51,553 bases of DNA. Origin: an uncultured bacterium (lineage in GTDB: Bacteria > Patescibacteriota > Minisyncoccia > Phycocordibacterales > GWA1-40-21). The stretch spans positions 1 through 51,553 of the forward strand of contig CAWDSG010000002.1 of assembly GCA_963804975.1 (NCBI GenBank), written 5' to 3'. The notes beneath the pieces were generated by a model. The model searched no databases, had not been told where the DNA came from, and saw only the letters and a list, made by a program, of their open reading frames with translations. Position numbers and translations under genes: made by a program. Positions 144 to 51,508 of the stretch are shown piece by piece (the stretch's first letter is position 1; the number at the start of each line of letters is the position of its first letter).

Positions 144-1892
144 TTAAAACACATCTGCAATTCTCAACCTCAACTCTTCATTGCCGTTCCAGAAGCTTTT
201 TTCAAAGTTTGCAAGCAAGTCAATTTTTTCTCCGGCAGCAATTTTTACCGAAAAATCCTCCGGTTTTGTAAAAAATCCCACTGCAGATATTTTTCGGCCT
301 TTTCCATTCCTGAAATCAATTTTCAAATGCTCGCTATTCTTGCCGAAAATCTTCACTTCCGAGATTTCAATTCCACGAAACGCAAAAATCGGTTTTGGAT
401 TGCCCATTCCAAACGGCGCAAGCAAACTTACCTGTTTTCCCAAATCATCATTCACATCGTCTATGGAAATTATCGCATCGGCGATTATTTTTTCTTTTGA
501 TTCATTTTTTACACTTAATTTTTGATACGAAATCTCAAGTTCATCGGAAAGCAGATCAACTTTGTCAAAATGCACGGTAAATCCGCCCGAGGCCGCATGG
601 CCGCCGTATTCAGAAAACACATTGGAAGATTCCCTCATCATCGCCACAATATCCACACAACCGTCCGATCTGCAGGAACCTTTCAAAGTTTTCCCTTCTT
701 CTCTGCCCCAGAGAAAAACCGGGCCATTATGCTCGTCCATAAGCGAACTTGCCACAAGTCCTAAGAGCGACGGCTTCCAATCCGGATTTCCTGCCACCAA
801 AACTTTTCTTTTTTTCTCCGAATCTCTTTCTTTCCAGTACTTTTTGATTTCTTTCACCATCGCCGCCACGACTCCTTTCCTTTCTTTGTTTATTTTATCC
901 AAATGTCGCGCGTATTTGTCCGCCTCCGTCTCGTCCGAGGTACTAAGCAGTAAAAATGCGTCTTCCGGTTCGCCCATTCTTGAAGCGGCATTTATTCTAG
1001 GGCTTATCATGAAAGAAATATCGTCTTCCGAAACATTTTTCTGGTCAATTCTCAAAAGCGAGAAAAGTTTCTGGAGCCCGGGTCTTGGTGATTTCCTCAA
1101 AACCTTAAGACCGTATCGGGCAAAAATCCTATTTTCGCCGATAAGCGGAACCATATCGGAAATCGTGGCAATCGCCACCATATCAAGGAGCCATTTCTCC
1201 CAACCAACTTTTATATTGAATTTTTCCGCATGTTTTTTCAAAAACGCCTGGACAAATTTGAAAACCACGCCGGTGGCGCAAAGATTTTTGTCCGGATATC
1301 CGCATTTTGACTGTTTTGGATTGATAATTGCGACGGCGTCTGGAAGTTTTTCTTTATTTTTTACCAAGGTCGGCAAATGGTGGTCTATTATTATCAAATC
1401 TATGCCAAGTTTTTTGATTTTTTTTGCTTCTTTCACATCTGCAATTCCGCAATCAATTGTTATGATCAGATTTACTTTTTTTCCGGCAAATTCGTCTATC
1501 GCCTGTTCATTCAAACCGAATCCTTCAAGCACGCGATGCGGAATATAATTTTCAAAAAAATCAAAGCCAATTTTTTTGAAAAAATCATGCATTATGACCG
1601 CTCCCGGTATGCCATCAGCATCATAATCGGAAAATATTATTATCTTTTCTTTCTTTTCAATCGCATCATGTATTCTTTTCACTGCTTTTTCCATATCCTT
1701 CATCAGAAAAGGATCGTGATTTTCCTCATAAACCGGATTTAAAAATTTCTCCGCATCTTTTGCAGTCTTGATTCCTCTGTAATATAGAAATTTGCGCAAA
1801 ATTTCCGGACCTGCCTGCCGGCCAGGCAGGTATTTTTCAAGTTCCTTGCTCGCTTTTTCGTCTATTTCTCCCCTGACTGAATAATTTTGCAT
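144..1892 (-). CDS. recJ: single-stranded-DNA-specific exonuclease RecJ (DHH/DHHA1)
   Basis: 582-aa ORF with DHH-family motifs (SDYDADG, IIIDHH, GGHAASGG) and the typical RecJ N-terminus (RGI..AEKFLNP). It carries the 21-bp palindrome in-frame near the N-terminus. Confidence 0.9.
   Translation of the reverse strand: MQNYSVRGEIDEKASKELEKYLPGRQAGPEILRKFLYYRGIKTAKDAEKFLNPVYEENHDPFLMKDMEKAVKRIHDAIEKKEKIIIFSDYDADGIPGAVIMHDFFKKIGFDFFENYIPHRVLEGFGLNEQAIDEFAGKKVNLIITIDCGIADVKEAKKIKKLGIDLIIIDHHLPTLVKNKEKLPDAVAIINPKQSKCGYPDKNLCATGVVFKFVQAFLKKHAEKFNIKVGWEKWLLDMVAIATISDMVPLIGENRIFARYGLKVLRKSPRPGLQKLFSLLRIDQKNVSEDDISFMISPRINAASRMGEPEDAFLLLSTSDETEADKYARHLDKINKERKGVVAAMVKEIKKYWKERDSEKKRKVLVAGNPDWKPSLLGLVASSLMDEHNGPVFLWGREEGKTLKGSCRSDGCVDIVAMMRESSNVFSEYGGHAASGGFTVHFDKVDLLSDELEISYQKLSVKNESKEKIIADAIISIDDVNDDLGKQVSLLAPFGMGNPKPIFAFRGIEISEVKIFGKNSEHLKIDFRNGKGRKISAVGFFTKPEDFSVKIAAGEKIDLLANFEKSFWNGNEELRLRIADVF
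1810..1830 (+). repeat. GC-rich 21-bp palindromic element, in-frame in recJ (encodes LPGRQAG)
   Basis: The + strand reads cctgcctgccggccaggcagg. The stem is 8 bp, or 9 with the flanking a/t, and the centre is 5 nt. Confidence 0.85.
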
Positions 1893-3648: not shown

Positions 3649-4230
3649 ATGATAGCAAAAATTGAAGGCATAGTTTGGGATACCAATAATAAATTTCTCG
3701 TGGTCGGTGTTGGCCTGCCCGGCCAGGGCGGAGTGGGGTTTAAAATTTACACAACCACAGAAACAAAAGAAGTTGCGATAAAAGGCACGAAAATTTCCCT
3801 CTTCACTCACTTGGCTGTGCGGGAAGATGCGCTTGACCTTTATGGATTTCTTTCGGAAGAAGAGCTTAATTTTTTTGAACTTTTGATTTCCATTTCCGGC
3901 ATCGGCCCAAAAACAGCTTTAAATGTTTTAAATGTCAGCTCCGTTTCTCTTCTCAAAAAAGCCATTTCTACCGCCGACACATCCCACCTGATTAAAGTTT
4001 CAGGCATCGGCAAGAAAATCGCGGAAAAAATCGTGCTTGAGCTCAAAGATAAAATATTCACGCAAAAAGAAACCGACATGAATTTGAAAGATGAGATTGA
4101 CGCGATGGAAGCTCTGCAGAGCTTGGGCTATTCGCAAAGAGAAGTCCGTGAAGCTCTGAAAAAAATTGACCAAAAATTTGTTAAAACGCAGGATAAAATA
4201 AAAGAAGCGTTGAAAGTTTTGGGGAAATAA
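3649..4230 (+). CDS. ruvA: Holliday junction DNA helicase subunit RuvA
   Basis: 193 aa. N-terminal MIAKIEG.., GGVGF motif, HhH motifs (ISGIGPKTA, VSGIGKKIAEKI), C-terminal domain III (ALQSLGY). Contains a 5-codon LPGQG insertion. Confidence 0.9.
   Translation: MIAKIEGIVWDTNNKFLVVGVGLPGQGGVGFKIYTTTETKEVAIKGTKISLFTHLAVREDALDLYGFLSEEELNFFELLISISGIGPKTALNVLNVSSVSLLKKAISTADTSHLIKVSGIGKKIAEKIVLELKDKIFTQKETDMNLKDEIDAMEALQSLGYSQREVREALKKIDQKFVKTQDKIKEALKVLGK
3712..3730 (+). repeat. short form of the GC-rich palindromic element (CCTG-CCCGGC-CAGG) in-frame in ruvA
   Basis: ggC CTG CCC GGC CAG GGC encodes G-LPGQG and interrupts VVGV-GGVGF. The codon phase (xxC CTG CCx) is the same as in the full 21-bp copies. 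Confidence 0.6.
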
Positions 4231-9406: not shown

Positions 9407-10171
9407 TTAAAGCTCCAGAATAAACTTCTCCAGAGCTACAAAAAAATCCGTATTCCCTCTATGCGCTTCGTGATACATTGATACGAGTTTCCACAAAATA
9501 TTTTGGAGTTCCTCGTCTTTATAATTCTTCGCGTATTCGCGGGCTTTTTGGAACGGATATGGCTTCATTCCAGCTTCTTCCGCACTCTTGCATAATTTCC
9601 CCAACATCATACTTTTCGCCTGCCAGAAAAAGATCCCGTGCACTTCCTCCGCTGGCACCTGTTCAGCCAAGGCATCCTGATAAAACACCCACAAGCCCTT
9701 TTTGTCTCTCCTGCCAAGAGCGTCTGCAAATTCAAAAAAATCTATTTTTTCTCCGACAAGTGCAAGTTTTTCTTTTTTATTCAGCGGTTTTTCCGGTTTT
9801 ATAAACTCCTGAACTTTCCCTGCCTGGCCGGCAGGCAGGTCTGCGACTTTTTCAATTTTTGCCAGCCCAGCTTTGTCCATCTTCCCTTCGGCAAATATAA
9901 AAATATTTTTCGATTTGCCGATTTCTTTAATATTTTTCAATATTAATTCCTTATTTTCTTTATTTTCAAAAGTTTTGTAGAAATATACAATATATTTATT
10001 TGAAAAAAGCGCTTGGCTTTGCGTAAGCTCGGCAATTCTTTCATTGGACAAATTTTCCTCCCCTATTTTTACAAGAGTTGCATCAGGTTTTTTGAGAAGT
10101 AAAGAATCAATTGTTATTTTTGCTTTCTTTCTCGCAGAATCTATATCTGAGCCGTAGTAAAAGTAGATCAT
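9407..10171 (-). CDS. holA: DNA polymerase III delta subunit-like protein (HolA)
   Basis: The N-terminus MIYFYYGSD..., overall length and C-terminal helical region resemble CPR HolA annotations recalled from memory. Start chosen at the internal ATG; the upstream extension is hydrophobic junk. Carries the 21-bp palindrome in-frame. Confidence 0.65.
   Translation of the reverse strand: MIYFYYGSDIDSARKKAKITIDSLLLKKPDATLVKIGEENLSNERIAELTQSQALFSNKYIVYFYKTFENKENKELILKNIKEIGKSKNIFIFAEGKMDKAGLAKIEKVADLPAGQAGKVQEFIKPEKPLNKKEKLALVGEKIDFFEFADALGRRDKKGLWVFYQDALAEQVPAEEVHGIFFWQAKSMMLGKLCKSAEEAGMKPYPFQKAREYAKNYKDEELQNILWKLVSMYHEAHRGNTDFFVALEKFILEL
9819..9839 (-). repeat. GC-rich 21-bp palindromic element, in-frame in holA (encodes LPAGQAG)
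   Basis: The + strand reads cctgcctggccggcaggcagg. Confidence 0.85.
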
Positions 10172-10308
10172 ACGCCTTAGTGTAAAGGAAAAAAGAGAAA
10201 GGTGAAAGAGAAAAAATACTTGACTTATAAATATATATGTGATATCCTTTAAAAAGGAAATAAAAAATATTGATGGATATGGATCCATCAAAGAAAGAAG
10301 GTCGCGTC

Positions 10309-10643: not shown

Positions 10644-10676
10644 ATATCCCCTGAGAAAACTCGGGGGATATTTTTA
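10644..10676 (+). terminator. intrinsic terminator
   Basis: ATATCCCCTGAG-AAAA-CTCGGGGGATAT followed by TTTTT. Confidence 0.75.
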
Positions 10677-11393
10677 TTTTAATAAAACGATCGCACTTGC
10701 TACAATCGCTGCTGTTTCGGCGCGGAGAATTTGCGGGCCTAAAGATACTGATTTTATGCCTTTTTGTCTGAACAATTCCCTTTCTCTGTCCGTCCATCCG
10801 CCTTCGGGACCGACAAAAAGCCCGAGCTTTTTGCCCTGAGCCTGTCGAAGGGTTTCAATTTTTTCACCATTGAAATCCAGTGCAAACATTTTTCCCTCAA
10901 AACCTGCCTGGCCGGCAGGCAGGTTTTCAATTGCATTTTCCAAATCAACCGGTTCAAAAATTTCCGGCAAGTAAGCTCTCCCAGATTGTTCGCTCGCCTC
11001 TTTTGCAATCTTCTGCAACCTTTCAATATTCAGATCTTTCTTTTCGCTTCTCTCGGAAATTATAGGATGAAAAGCACTTGCGCCAATTTCTGTGCATTTT
11101 TCCACCACCAATTCAAAATTATCTTTTTTTATAATTGATTGAAAAAGATGCAATTCGGTTGCCGGAATATTTTCAATTTTTTTTTCTTTATCAATCACAA
11201 TAACCGCCTCTTTTTTACTAAGCAATTCAAAAAATCCTTCATATTCTTTGCCGTTGCCGTTAAAAAGTACAACTCTGTCCGCAACAGAAAAGCGAAAAAC
11301 TTTTATCCACTGATGCAAAAGCTCCGGATTTTCAATCCTGACTCGCTTTCCTTTTTCCAAAGTTTCTTCTATATAAAATCTGTGTAATCGCAT
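10674..11393 (-). CDS. rsmE: 16S rRNA (uracil1498-N3)-methyltransferase RsmE
   Basis: MRLHRFYI N-terminus and C-terminal SPOUT motifs (GPEGGW, LGPQILRAETA). Carries the 21-bp palindrome in-frame in a variable loop. Confidence 0.88.
   Translation of the reverse strand: MRLHRFYIEETLEKGKRVRIENPELLHQWIKVFRFSVADRVVLFNGNGKEYEGFFELLSKKEAVIVIDKEKKIENIPATELHLFQSIIKKDNFELVVEKCTEIGASAFHPIISERSEKKDLNIERLQKIAKEASEQSGRAYLPEIFEPVDLENAIENLPAGQAGFEGKMFALDFNGEKIETLRQAQGKKLGLFVGPEGGWTDRERELFRQKGIKSVSLGPQILRAETAAIVASAIVLLK
10903..10923 (-). repeat. GC-rich 21-bp palindromic element, in-frame in rsmE (encodes LPAGQAG)
   Basis: The + strand reads aaCCTGCCTGGCCGGCAGGCAGGtt, giving a 10-bp stem when the flanks are included. 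Confidence 0.85.
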
Positions 11394-19157: not shown

Positions 19158-19509
19158 GTGTTTCGCGTGCCTGTCCGGCCAAGAAAACATATCGTCTAAA
19201 TCTATATTTTTCAATAAAAAAACCGCCCTAAACCACTGAGCGTAGTAAGGACGGCGAAAGAAAGAATTTCGCCAAGTCCCGTTTTTCAATCTTAGCGTTT
19301 TAAAAATAAAATCTTAAAGCGGACGAAAAAGGAGCTTAACCAAATTTGACTTTCAATTTCGAAGATAGCTGATCTTCTGGAAAGAACTCCATTGTGAAGC
19401 ATTAAGGAGAACTAAATAATTTGAGTTGCTATATTATTTTGTCTAAATACTTCAAATGCTAAATCCAATATAATTATATCTTGTATAAAGGACATGTAAA
19501 GGACATAAC

Positions 19510-34589: not shown

Positions 34590-35642
34590 ATGGACGAAGA
34601 TATTGATGTAGAAAAAAATAAAGACGATCTTGATGAAAAACTGCGGGAAGCTGTCAGCGGCGAATTGAGTTCCTATGTAAATCCGCAGCCAACTTCAAAT
34701 TCCGCGGTAAAAACTCCGGTAAAACCGATTATCAGGACTTACAAAAGCGATATGGAGGAAACGATCGAAGCAGGGCATCTTTCTTCCATCAATATGGCTA
34801 TCAGTGAGAACAAAAAAATGATGGGCCGGATGAAGCAGGGAATATCCGAGATAAAAAAATCACCTGTCCGGTCAGGAAAATTAAATAAAAACATAATTAT
34901 TATAAGTTTGGTGCTTGTCGCCGGCGGAGCGGCGGCGATTTTCGTACCATACTTTTTGGTGCAAAAACAAAACGCACCTTCAACAGTGGCTTCAAGCACT
35001 ATCACCGCATTAACCCAATCCATAATGACGACCGATATTGAGGAAAAAATAAACATCAAAGACATAAACCTAAACGGAATAGACACGACTTTGAAACAAA
35101 GGGTTGACCAGTCAGCGACAAATCTCGGACAAATCAAAGATTTTGTGCTGACAAAAGGAAATGGAACAAATGAAGCTCCGATCTTGGCAAGTGAATTCCT
35201 GACTATGATCAAAGCTGATGTTCCGCCGGCAATATCACGGAATCTTCTGCCGCAATATATGTTCGGAATGCACAATTACAACGGAAATCAGGAATTTTTG
35301 ATATTGAAAGTCAGCTCATACGATACGACATTTTCCGGAATGCTTTTGTGGGAAACAGACCTGTGGCAGAACTTTAAAAACCTTTTCGGCCTTTCCGATA
35401 CTGCCGGCTCCGAAACACCTATAGCAAGCACTTCAGGCCAAAATTCATTTGGTATAACAGTGAAAAGATTCCAGGATGCCGAATTCGCCAACAAGGATTG
35501 CAGGGTGGTAAAAGACGATTCAGGAAATATAGTTTTCCTTTATTCAATCATAAATCCAAGCACTGTCGTCATAACTACCAGCTCGGATACATTGAAAGAA
35601 ATAATTTCAAGAACGAGCAGAATAAATACCGTAACTCAGTAA
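34590..35642 (+). CDS. hypothetical single-pass membrane protein
   Basis: 350 aa with a central TM segment (IIIISLVLVAGGAAAIFVPYFLV). No family recognised. Confidence 0.6.
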   Translation: MDEDIDVEKNKDDLDEKLREAVSGELSSYVNPQPTSNSAVKTPVKPIIRTYKSDMEETIEAGHLSSINMAISENKKMMGRMKQGISEIKKSPVRSGKLNKNIIIISLVLVAGGAAAIFVPYFLVQKQNAPSTVASSTITALTQSIMTTDIEEKINIKDINLNGIDTTLKQRVDQSATNLGQIKDFVLTKGNGTNEAPILASEFLTMIKADVPPAISRNLLPQYMFGMHNYNGNQEFLILKVSSYDTTFSGMLLWETDLWQNFKNLFGLSDTAGSETPIASTSGQNSFGITVKRFQDAEFANKDCRVVKDDSGNIVFLYSIINPSTVVITTSSDTLKEIISRTSRINTVTQ

Positions 35643-46385: not shown

Positions 46386-48320
46386 ATGAATTTTTTAAAA
46401 AATTTTAATAAAAAAATATCCTGTTTGCTCATTATATCTATTTTAGCTGTTAATCTTTCTTTTTTGGCTTTTCCCCAAAAAACAAAAGCGGTGACAGTTT
46501 TGGGAACAGGAACATCTGCAGAAGAGGTGTGGTTCATAGCGAATGGAGTTCAGGCCGCTGCTTTTTATAATGCTGCAGTACCCGCCACAGCTGCATTTCA
46601 AGCAAAACAGCTTGCTGCCCCTTCTATTTGGAATATCCTTGAACAAGATGGCGTTCTTCCTGCTCTTCAGGCAATTGCAGAAGATATCGCAAGACAAATT
46701 ATTCAAAATATCACTGAAGCAACGGTAAATTGGATCAACAACGGTTTTAACGGCCAGCCAGCATATGTGTCAAATATAGGAAATTTTCTTGCGAATACGG
46801 CAGACCAGACAATCGGTGAAGAACTTTTAAATTCAGATTTGAATTTCCTTTGCACTCCATTCCAGCTTCAGGTCAAGCTCGCCCTCAACTTATCCTACTC
46901 GCAGCCGTATTATAAGCAGATTGGCTGTACTCTCACCGGAGCAATCGCAAACGCCACAAACGCAGTCAATGATTTTACAAGTGCGGAGGGATGGAATAAT
47001 TGGCTTCAGATGAGCACAAACCCGCAAAATAATCCTATTGGCGCATTTCTTATAGCGCAAAACCATATCAACACCCAGGTTGCGGCAAGACAGGCTTCCG
47101 CTTTAGCGGAAGTAAGTATCGGCCAAGGAGCTTTGAGTTATAAAGATTGCGTAGAAACCACAAAGGACAGCAATGGAGAGCTTGTGTCAACACGAGAATA
47201 TTTAGGTTCTGATTTTCTTAATGCCAGTGCTAACGTAACTTTGCCTAACGGTAAAAATATTGTCAATACCAACACTCCTGCAAATACAACGAACACAACA
47301 AATAAAACAACGACTGAATGTACAACTAAAACCCCAGGAGCTGTTATTACAAATATGCTCGGTTTTAGCGCCACCAGTGATGTCAGAGTAACCGAGCTTC
47401 AGGCAGCTTTATCAAACGGCATAGACCAGGTTCTTGGAAGCCTCGCAAACGCACTTATTAAAAAAGGACTTTCGGCGCTTCAAAACGGCGTGCTTGGAAA
47501 TAACAGCACTACAAACGCCGATTATAATTCACAGCTCAATTCAATACTGCAACAAACTCAGACGCAATATAACCAAACTGCGCAACAAGTTCAAAACCCG
47601 AATTATACTCCGGATTATAATCTTGGAAGCCAGCTCAATCAGTATGACACCTTTTTGGGCAACAATTACAGCTCCGGTTTCAATCCTACGCCGGAGACAG
47701 CCACGACAACAAACGGGCAAAGCATCAGCCCAAGCGATCCATTTTATTCCGAAAAAACAAATTCCATTTCAATCATCAACTCAATACTGAATTTTGAATA
47801 CAAATATCAGGATGTGTACGACGTGGCTCTTAACATACTTTCCGCGGGAAGAGATGTTTTTAACAGCGCAAAAAATTGCAATATTGCTCTTGGAGACCCC
47901 GCATCGTATTCCAGAGCGCTTTCCATAAACGCAAATGTCATTTCAAACATAGATAGAACAGTCAATTACAGCAAAACGATTCCGCAGATACCTTGGAGCT
48001 TGCCGGCTCTGGACAGCTCAATGATACTTTCAAATTCCCATGTTGATATCCTTAACAACGCACAAGACACAATAATAAGCGCCACTGCAGGCGATACGAT
48101 TTCAAGCGAGATGGATATTATAAATGGCACAAACTTCAACGCCGACCAGCCGCTTGCGAATATGATTAGCAATATAAAAGCATGGTTTACCCAAATGAGC
48201 ATTATGTACACGACAGCCCAGTGTCCGATAGATCTGACTTCTGCTCTCACCGGCAATGCGCCTGCGCAATCCGAAGGCGCAACAAGTTCAACTGTCACTT
48301 CCGGAAGCTTTTTGCAGTAA
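46386..48320 (+). CDS. large secreted N/T/Q-rich protein (possible secretion-system or surface component)
   Basis: 644 aa with a signal/anchor sequence and a start 6 nt after the preceding stop. A strong GC-rich terminator lies downstream. No family recognised. Confidence 0.6.
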   Translation: MNFLKNFNKKISCLLIISILAVNLSFLAFPQKTKAVTVLGTGTSAEEVWFIANGVQAAAFYNAAVPATAAFQAKQLAAPSIWNILEQDGVLPALQAIAEDIARQIIQNITEATVNWINNGFNGQPAYVSNIGNFLANTADQTIGEELLNSDLNFLCTPFQLQVKLALNLSYSQPYYKQIGCTLTGAIANATNAVNDFTSAEGWNNWLQMSTNPQNNPIGAFLIAQNHINTQVAARQASALAEVSIGQGALSYKDCVETTKDSNGELVSTREYLGSDFLNASANVTLPNGKNIVNTNTPANTTNTTNKTTTECTTKTPGAVITNMLGFSATSDVRVTELQAALSNGIDQVLGSLANALIKKGLSALQNGVLGNNSTTNADYNSQLNSILQQTQTQYNQTAQQVQNPNYTPDYNLGSQLNQYDTFLGNNYSSGFNPTPETATTTNGQSISPSDPFYSEKTNSISIINSILNFEYKYQDVYDVALNILSAGRDVFNSAKNCNIALGDPASYSRALSINANVISNIDRTVNYSKTIPQIPWSLPALDSSMILSNSHVDILNNAQDTIISATAGDTISSEMDIINGTNFNADQPLANMISNIKAWFTQMSIMYTTAQCPIDLTSALTGNAPAQSEGATSSTVTSGSFLQ

Positions 48321-48349
48321 TTTTCTATAAAAAAGATTAAAAACAAACA

Positions 48350-48385
48350 GCGGGGCGGGGCGCAAAGCGCCCCGCCTTGTTATTT
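48350..48385 (+). terminator. strong GC-rich intrinsic terminator
   Basis: GGCGGGGCGC-AAA-GCGCCCCGCC followed by TTGTTATTT. Confidence 0.8.
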
Positions 48386-48408
48386 GCTGTTATTTGCCCC
48401 GTATTGCT

Positions 48409-50719: not shown

Positions 50720-51508
50720 ATGGATAATGATTTAGACAAAAATCTTGAAGAACAGTTCCAAAATCTACCGAAAGAACTTCGGGAGGCAATTTCTTCTGCT
50801 GATTTACCAAATAAGCTGCAACAAATAACAAAAAATAACCAAATTCTTCTTGATCAAGCAGAAAATGTACAAAAAGAAACATTATTGGTCCTTTTAGGAC
50901 TTGAGCCGCTTGAAAACTATACTGAAAACTTACAAAAAAATGCCGAGCTTACTAAAAATCAGGCTATAGCTATAGCTCATGATATAAACGAACTAGTATT
51001 CAAAAATGTCAGGGAAACATTACGAAAGATAAATGAAGATGCTGAAGCTGCAGAAGCCGGGGCAACAGCCGAAAAGGAAAAATTACCAGCAGCAAGCGCT
51101 CTGCAGCCGAGCAGGGAAGAAATACTTGCTGGCATTGAAAATCCGGAAAATATAAAAACAAAAGAAGAGGCCGTTTCAATCAGTTCGATTTCATCAAACA
51201 TTCCAAAACCTGCGGAGAAATCGGAGATAGCTCCTGAAAAAACAGAAATAAAAAATGATTTGCTTCCGGAAATATATCCAGAGACAAATATTTCCGCCGA
51301 GTCCGTGCTTTTACCGAAACAGGAACCGTACCATGAAAATATTTCTCCGGTAGAAAATATAGTGCAATCTAAAATGTCCGGACCGGTTATCGTACCGAAA
51401 GAAACTGTCGTAGTTGAAAAAACAAAATTGCCGGACCTGCCAGCCGGCCAGGCAGGAAAATCAAAACCTTCGGATTCCACAGACCCATATCGCGAACCAA
51501 TAATATAA
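50720..51508 (+). CDS. acidic low-complexity protein of unknown function
   Basis: 262-aa ORF starting 19 nt after the preceding stop. It carries the 21-bp palindrome in-frame near the C-terminus. Confidence 0.55.
   Translation: MDNDLDKNLEEQFQNLPKELREAISSADLPNKLQQITKNNQILLDQAENVQKETLLVLLGLEPLENYTENLQKNAELTKNQAIAIAHDINELVFKNVRETLRKINEDAEAAEAGATAEKEKLPAASALQPSREEILAGIENPENIKTKEEAVSISSISSNIPKPAEKSEIAPEKTEIKNDLLPEIYPETNISAESVLLPKQEPYHENISPVENIVQSKMSGPVIVPKETVVVEKTKLPDLPAGQAGKSKPSDSTDPYREPII
51436..51456 (+). repeat. GC-rich 21-bp palindromic element (1 substitution), in-frame in the 50720 ORF (encodes LPAGQAG)
   Basis: The + strand reads cctgccAgccggccaggcagg. Confidence 0.8.

Follow-up and report, generated by a model that had tools for sequence, protein, structure and literature searches.

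The ruvA gene in the window (the whole stretch of DNA analysed here, 51,553 nt) carries a 15-nt insertion that is read in frame and belongs to a family of small palindromes, the short and long forms of which are distributed independently of one another and the copies of which are biased towards one codon phase. We consider it probable, at roughly three chances in four, that this insert is a young and intact copy of a 15-nt palindromic subfamily with 18- and 21-nt sister forms, copied in trans and thereafter filtered by reading frame and encoded peptide. The core of the short subfamily is CCTG-C-CCGG-C-CAGG, usually seen as GGCCTGCCCGGCCAGGG, and the family has three or more sister forms (15, 18 and 21 nt, each divisible by three), which have CCTG/CAGG arms in common and have expanded separately in different species of the genus.

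The ruvA gene and its five-residue insertion

The source genome of the window (G000, 681 kb, 39.5% GC; other G-numbers denote comparison genomes) encodes a RuvA in which Pfam assigns RuvA_N to residues 1–66 (1.5e-13), HHH_5 to residues 76–134 (2e-16) and RuvA_C to residues 151–191 (1.3e-10). The hallmarks of the protein, that is, the OB-fold RuvA_N domain, two helix-hairpin-helix motifs and RuvA_C, are thus all present, RuvA entries of the PDB match it (E 3.5e-28) and a RuvB gene is found elsewhere in the genome. Within this gene (Table 1), GGCCTGCCCGGCCAGGGC is read in frame as RuvA residues G22 L23 P24 G25 Q26 G27. The net gain is 15 nt, or five residues, which split the V-GG-VGF turn, and because GGC stands at both ends of the insert its position is ambiguous by 3 nt.

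Table 1. Positions, within the window, of ruvA, its insertion and the other palindrome copies
Feature	Position	Strand	Remarks
ruvA CDS	3649..4230	+	193 aa, intact, insertion host; from ORF list and Pfam domains
GGCCTGCCCGGCCAGGGC	3712..3729	+	15-nt insertion plus 3-nt GGC assignable to either end; encodes G-LPGQ-G
Quasi-palindromic 14-nt core CCTG-C-CCGG-C-CAGG, short (15-nt) subfamily	3714..3727	+	8 exact copies in the genome
T-variant short core CCTGTCCGGTCAGG	34863..34876		phase 0, PVRSG, in ORF 34590-35642; 5-aa gap vs G020
21-nt copy, reverse, LPGRQAG	1810..1830		in recJ, ORF 144-1892 minus; exact 7-aa gap vs G020; RecJ_OB, DHH, DHHA1
21-nt copy, LPAGQAG	9819..9839		in DNA polymerase III delta-like gene, ORF 9407-10291 minus
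21-nt copy, LPAGQAG	10903..10923		in RsmE-type RNA methyltransferase gene, ORF 10674-11393 minus
21-nt copy, one substitution, LPAGQAG	51436..51456		in ORF 50720-51508 plus, no Pfam family

That a five-residue insertion splits this turn, as a preliminary description of the window had proposed from the letters, is borne out by comparison with 23 genomes of the same genus and six from other genera of the order. The insert is absent from RuvA in all 29 at both the protein and the DNA level: their strand runs straight into GG(I/V)GF, the proteins reading V-G-V-GG(I/V)GF without gap filler, and their DNA reads GTN GGN GGN at the place where the source genome has GTT, then GGCCTGCCCGGCCAGGGC, then GGA. 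No element of any form occupies the RuvA site in any of these 29 relatives, and the alignment with the closest congener (G020) shows a clean 5-aa gap. Among the best 120 matches in a collection of 5.8 billion proteins, 118 other homologues cover the site and all 118 lack the insert, the nearest other RuvA being 77% identical; different inserts of 1 to 4 residues are seen in the same turn in P0063, P0098 and P0108. The same loop written in unrelated codons, which would have spoken against the proposal, is thus found in none of the 29 relatives or 118 homologues, and from its absence there we conclude that the insertion, known from one assembly only, is real, lineage-specific and young.

An AlphaFold model of the protein (mean pLDDT 83.5), the core of which superposes on solved RuvA structures with a TM score of 0.90–0.91 and an rmsd of 1.8–2.1 Å, places the insert in a loop (residues 22–28) between strands 17–21 and 29–35. 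In this model LPGQG belongs to the hairpin that joins strands 2 and 3 of the OB fold at the N-terminus; pLDDT is 80 for the 21–30 block versus 94 for its neighbours. We infer that the five extra residues are tolerated in RuvA. In E. coli RuvA the acidic pin consists of E55/D56 on the hairpin after the fourth strand, according to the portions available of PMC8881015 (also PMC3364216). In the present protein E59-D60 lie in AVREDALDLYGF, between strands 48–57 and 62–67, where an acidic pin belongs, E59 is invariant across a 45-sequence RuvA alignment, and the pair corresponds to E. coli E55/D56. The tips of the strand 2–3 and strand 4–5 hairpins of an OB fold lie at the same end of the barrel. 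If this usual topology holds here, the new loop may therefore adjoin the strand-separating acidic pin.

Short and long forms of the palindrome

The copies of the 14-nt core CCTGCCCGGCCAGG in the 681-kb, 39.5% GC source genome (eight, all exact) compare with about 4e-4 exact cores per whole genome expected by chance from base composition. A reversed-pattern control of the core gave no match in any of the 41 genomes searched, and shuffled versions of the window held on average 0.10 core matches at up to two mismatches, against five observed. Four other copies in the genome have the same 17 nt (GGCCTGCCCGGCCAGGG) as the RuvA copy; all five are sense copies, lie in the genes for RuvA, RecG, MnmA, GreA and a GatA-type amidase, and read GLPGQG; short copies in reverse orientation read (S/T)LAGQA. 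Among short variants with a T/A centre the phase is 0 and the peptide P(G/V/A)R(S/T)G, the phase rule being looser in the short class, and a looser variant of the T-type core lies at 19170–19183, outside any ORF of at least 60 aa. From relatives, 17 short-core copies were fetched, in ORFs of 113 to 463 aa, six of which read GLPGQ(G/D) and four (S/T)LAGQA; five of the six congener sense copies match the 17-nt RuvA sequence in full and the sixth over 16 nt. The RuvA copy has the exact core, the 15-nt gain, the in-frame position and the (G)LPGQ(G) peptide of the subfamily, features shared by four other copies in the source genome and by 10 of the 17 from relatives. As RNA, the hairpin of the short palindrome is no stabler than shuffled sequence (z −0.38, the 21-mer giving z −2.66), on which ground an RNA hairpin was rejected as the function of the RuvA insert.

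The 21-nt palindrome, CCTGCCT(A/G)CCGGCCAGGCAGG, has 31 copies in the source genome at up to three substitutions, all in long ORFs. The RuvA copy had been described as having the same phase (xxC CTG CCx) as these full copies, and it indeed matches 30 of the 31, which share one codon phase. Of these in-phase copies, 16 read LPTGQAG, seven LPAGQAG, four are reversed (LPGRQAG type) and three are variants; the reversed A form of the 21-mer would, in that phase, place a TAG stop in the reading frame. Long copies interrupt a codon after its second base, most often as GA|N, and turn Glu or Asp into Asp...Gly. If preference for a target dinucleotide alone were responsible, all 25 scored long copies would fall in one phase with P of about 1e-9, which makes a filter on the encoded peptide the likely cause of the phase bias. 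A third length class is an 18-nt perfect palindrome, CCTGCCTGCGCAGGCAGG, with copies in the source genome at C1:772, C2:425548 and C2:163209, one of which is an in-frame six-residue insertion (NLPAQAGK) in a 977-aa protein. With one arm unit per side, a 6-nt CCCGGC centre versus CCGGC and a gain of 15 nt, the RuvA element is a sister form of the 21-mer and not a member of it.

Genes for DNA replication and repair are prominent among the hosts of these palindromes in and near the window (RecJ, the polymerase III delta-like protein, RuvA, RecG). Several genes hold more than one element (C2:102294-103190; 298184-299410; 580387-581883; 414999-416870): a single ORF carries three, two 21-nt variants and one of 15 nt, the MnmA and amidase genes carry one long and one short copy each, and one ORF holds two 21-mers 42 nt apart.

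Whole-genome comparison was made with G020, a single 681,747-bp contig without 15-, 18- or 21-nt copies. Relative to its orthologues, 25 of the 31 long copies appear as exact 7-aa gaps, three as gaps of 6, 9 or 10 aa and three without a resolved gap, while the 20 short-type sites give 10 exact 5-aa gaps, seven other gaps and three without a spanning alignment. A census of indels between the two genomes, antisense-frame duplicates included, shows spikes in the source genome at 5 aa (27 vs 16) and 7 aa (41 vs 6), and inserts of at least 3 aa with at least 70% GC make up 54 of 169 in the source genome versus 5 of 102 in G020, again with antisense-frame duplicates counted. A match in G020 is lacking for 205 of the 639 ORFs of the source genome.

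The three forms differ in where they occur. The 21-mer (31 copies in the source genome) is found in none of 24 congeners, the 15-nt core (eight exact copies) in nine of the 24 at one to three copies each, and the 18-mer (three copies) likewise in nine of the 24, G011 alone having 18 copies. Five genomes from other phyla contain 125, 4, 5, 20 and 24 copies of the 21-mer and 0, 0, 1, 0 and 0 exact short cores, respectively. These separate distributions indicate sister lineages, each bursting separately. Forms of different length nevertheless meet at certain sites. A loop in RecG (SLF-G; L214–L243) serves repeatedly as an insertion site and stands empty in 25 of the 30 genomes. The 15-nt form occupies it in the source genome (copy at C1:1264, gene C1:824-2995) and in G004; G005 has a degenerate 15-nt copy, G015 has the 18-nt form, and G013 has a degenerate 18-nt copy one codon downstream. 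In a second protein a 21-nt copy (source genome) and a 15-nt copy (G001) lie two codons apart. Shared sites of the RecG type are hotspots or highly permissive loops.

Beyond the genus, the exact 21-mer is present at at least 117 loci in genome records of many phyla. Eighty such loci were fetched: 35 combine the LPxGQAG phase with an ORF of at least 100 aa, 18 show other phases and 27 lie in short ORFs. In the Cyclobacteriaceae (Bacteroidota) assembly with 125 copies, pairs of 21-mers in inverted orientation, spaced some 330 nt from each other, delimit a repeated unit of about 350 bp that has no consistent ORF (L203–L205, L207; G041, G042); the unit looks like a MITE with the palindrome serving as terminal repeat. 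In viral contigs the 17-mer occurs at 33 loci, all but one with flanks of at least 54% GC (the exception, L255, has 49%), and given these GC-rich flanks the matches are probably due to chance; the 21-mer occurs there at 10 loci, one of them in a low-GC context (L279, 40%; the next lowest 51–52%).

Proposed copying in trans and its competitors

Our reading of the RuvA insert is as follows. A copy of the short form would have entered the turn V-GG-VGF by interrupting a Gly codon (GG|C), at a time when the lineage had already separated from every sampled congener, and once translated it would lengthen by LPGQG the hairpin that links strands 2 and 3 of the OB fold at the N-terminus. In a genome that is 88% coding, copies would survive only if they are of codon length and stand in a Leu-Pro-Gly-Gln-Gly-type frame, and such a filter on frame and peptide would leave almost all copies in one phase. 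Purifying selection would then lie behind the phase bias, and the copying itself would be performed in trans by a candidate activity that recognises the palindrome or its hairpin. Counting against this reading are the weakness of the short palindrome, whose RNA hairpin does not exceed shuffles in stability, the looser phase rule of the short class, the reuse of the RecG site by forms of different length, and the enzyme searches described below, which linked no mobilising enzyme to the family.

The main alternative to copying in trans is templated repair, in which the 15 nt were copied from another family member by repair or template switching at GG/CC microhomology, and hotspots are places where microhomology coincides with permissive loops. 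In all 11 sense short copies the element stands between a preceding GG and a following G, the conserved stretch is 16 nt against a gain of 15 nt, GGC is repeated at the RuvA junction, the RecG site has been used recurrently and the searches of the source genome described below returned no matching transposase or nuclease, all of which would suit such an origin. We nonetheless think it rather unlikely: identical 21-mers in many phyla indicate a sequence-specific agent, the long copies are without flanking homology, and bursts of 18 to 125 copies per genome are hard to obtain from rare repair errors.

The preliminary description had seen in the RuvA element the 21-bp palindrome reduced to one arm unit per side, either through decay or as a shorter allele. 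The resemblance to the 21-bp palindrome holds for the arms, the CCGG centre, the phase and the related peptide (LPGQG versus LP(T/A)GQAG). It fails on length, as loss of one unit per side should leave 13 nt whereas the RuvA core has 14, with an extra central C that simple loss of arm units does not yield. Decay in place, by which a full 21-nt element in RuvA would have lost these units, could draw in addition on the RecG hotspot, occupied by different lengths across species and with degenerate copies in G005 and G013, yet we judge it very improbable. Over 17 nt the RuvA copy shows no difference from the consensus of the short family; nine of 24 congeners, all without the 21-mer, have the short core; between them, the five 21-mer-rich genomes of other phyla contain a single exact short core; none of the RuvA proteins of the 29 relatives has an element at the site; and two precise codon deletions plus a substitution would have had to hit the consensus of another family exactly. 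The idea of a shorter allele fares somewhat better in that short and longer forms share the RecG site across species, a reuse that could mean interconversion in place.

Recruitment of LPGQG or LPxGQAG into many proteins as a functional tag, for instance a recognition or modification site, is again a most improbable explanation. The bias towards one frame and one peptide family is strong and extends to other phyla, where it is seen in 35 of the 53 copies in ORFs of at least 100 aa. Against a selected tag, all copies use identical codons, as expected of an origin at the DNA level, their hosts are unrelated cytoplasmic housekeeping proteins whose orthologues do without the peptide, the same DNA is found elsewhere in other frames (18 of 80 loci) and in short ORFs (27 of 80), and 21-mers form the ends of the non-coding unit of about 350 bp. 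Chance expansion of a GC-rich loop or an assembly error, to which the single assembly and the unrelated small inserts of other RuvA proteins in the same turn might point, is almost certainly not the explanation, given 17 of 17 nt identical to four other copies, an expectation of about 4e-4 copies, an empty reversed control, a length that keeps the frame and the same family in independent congener assemblies.

On a more speculative level, which we would put forward as a tentative proposal that may well prove wrong, the CCTG/CAGG-armed palindromes of 15, 18 and 21 nt would together constitute a superfamily of the smallest mobile DNA proposed so far: selfish elements of codon length, moved by a palindrome-recognising enzyme within and between phyla, bursting independently in single species and persisting as harmless translated Pro/Gly loops in essential proteins. 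The in-frame palindromic repeats of Rickettsia and some REP families are ten times larger, and the 15-nt gain in RuvA, RecG, GreA, MnmA and the GatA-type amidase, like the 18- and 21-nt sisters, lowers the size limit for dispersed repeats. The copies also amount to a simple natural experiment on loop tolerance in conserved proteins, testing which sites accept five additional residues, and for annotation they account for lineage-specific, GC-rich indels of 5 to 7 residues in genomes of the candidate phyla radiation. The RuvA insert itself is a natural variant of a nearly invariant turn and is biochemically testable.

Relation to known repeats and candidate enzymes

In-frame palindromic repeats as such are known (RPEs, intragenic REPs); new here are the RuvA insertion, the subfamily of short copies and the hotspot in RecG. 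The sequence and peptide strings of the RuvA family occur in no paper of the full-text library searched, and a keyword search of the literature for in-frame palindromic insertions in the candidate phyla radiation gave nothing relevant among the matches listed. As set out in the accessible parts of PMC3733652 and PMC3116915, REPs measure 20 to 40 bp, are tagged at one end by GTAG or CGTC, lie for the most part outside genes and stand on either side of their own RAYT gene; in the part available of their paper, Di Nocera et al. (2013) report that some REPs are intragenic, many of the host genes serving replication and repair (PMC3733652). To the extent that these accounts cover REPs, the present family resembles them as small GC-rich hairpin repeats, intragenic in replication and repair genes, in a genome that has a RAYT gene, and differs in that the RuvA element GGCCTGCCCGGCCAGGGC is 15–18 nt long and has neither GTAG nor CGTC, and in that its family is almost wholly intragenic. 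GTAG is present in the reverse complement of the A-form 21-mer, but inside the palindrome.

RPEs (Ogata et al. 2000), in the description available to us through excerpts of PMC10969869, are about 150 bp long, encode a conserved peptide of tens of residues and are confined to one genus. Like them, so far as that description reaches, the palindromes of the present family lie in frame in unrelated housekeeping genes, are translated with the host and are apparently tolerated; in contrast, the RuvA family measures 15 nt (five residues), with sisters of 18 and 21 nt, and its 21-nt form is identical across many phyla. The RuvA element works like an RPE but by size and sequence is not a member of that class. 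Small dispersed repeats of cyanobacteria, of some 20 nt, were reportedly described and proposed to be mobile by Elhai and co-workers in 2008; the RuvA family is alike in its very small size and differs in sequence and taxon. A MITE has 50–500 bp, terminal inverted repeats and a target-site duplication; at 15 nt the RuvA element falls below that size. The GGC on either side of it could be a 3-nt duplication or a coincidence; long copies need no duplication.

A further comparison is offered by Ssn (Chenal et al. 2025), a small GIY-YIG nuclease that, in the sections available of PMC11893778, recognises hairpin repeats (NTS/SRM) as single-stranded DNA and whose gene is flanked by them; there the SRMs, some 30 bp long, have flanks that are oriented and not palindromic, and the activity reported for Ssn is cleavage of the repeats rather than their insertion. 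On that account, Ssn and its short dispersed hairpin repeats could plausibly serve as a model of how a trans-acting enzyme would work, differing from the present case in the repeat sequence and in that the small GIY-YIG gene of the source genome has no adjacent palindrome.

Searches of the source genome for GIY-YIG, DUF559 and Y1_Tnp/RAYT proteins tied no enzyme to the palindrome family, and DUF559 was not found there. Two GIY-YIG matches were obtained, the small one (C2:603415-603861) having AT-rich flanks and no palindromes beside it. Its 148-aa product is encoded directly upstream of a 377-aa ATPase-like ORF (C2:602275-603861, L067), neither being matched in G020, and the two may form a defence-type pair. 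The genome has one Y1_Tnp/RAYT gene (C2:139568-140314, 248 aa), which is part of what looks like a classical REP/RAYT pair at C2:139492-140291 (L085:1239-2043), being flanked and interrupted by CCCGAGGTTNAACCTCGGG palindromes; about 25 further CCCGAGGTTNAACCTCGGG copies are found elsewhere in the genome, mostly with A/T-rich, terminator-like flanks, and G020 has neither CCCGAGGTTNAACCTCGGG copies nor a Y1_Tnp match. This RAYT could not be tied to the short family, its own flanks carrying CCCGAGGTTNAACCTCGGG and no CCTG/CAGG palindromes. Y1_Tnp genes, present in 15 of 24 congeners, do not track the short copies either: six of the nine carriers have the gene, and the short-copy carriers G005, G019 and G021 gave no Y1_Tnp match. 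Finally, a GC-rich inverted repeat of another kind, with 26-nt arms that are 77% complementary, lies at 48338–48392, some 20 nt past the end of ORF 46386–48320, and looks like a terminator.
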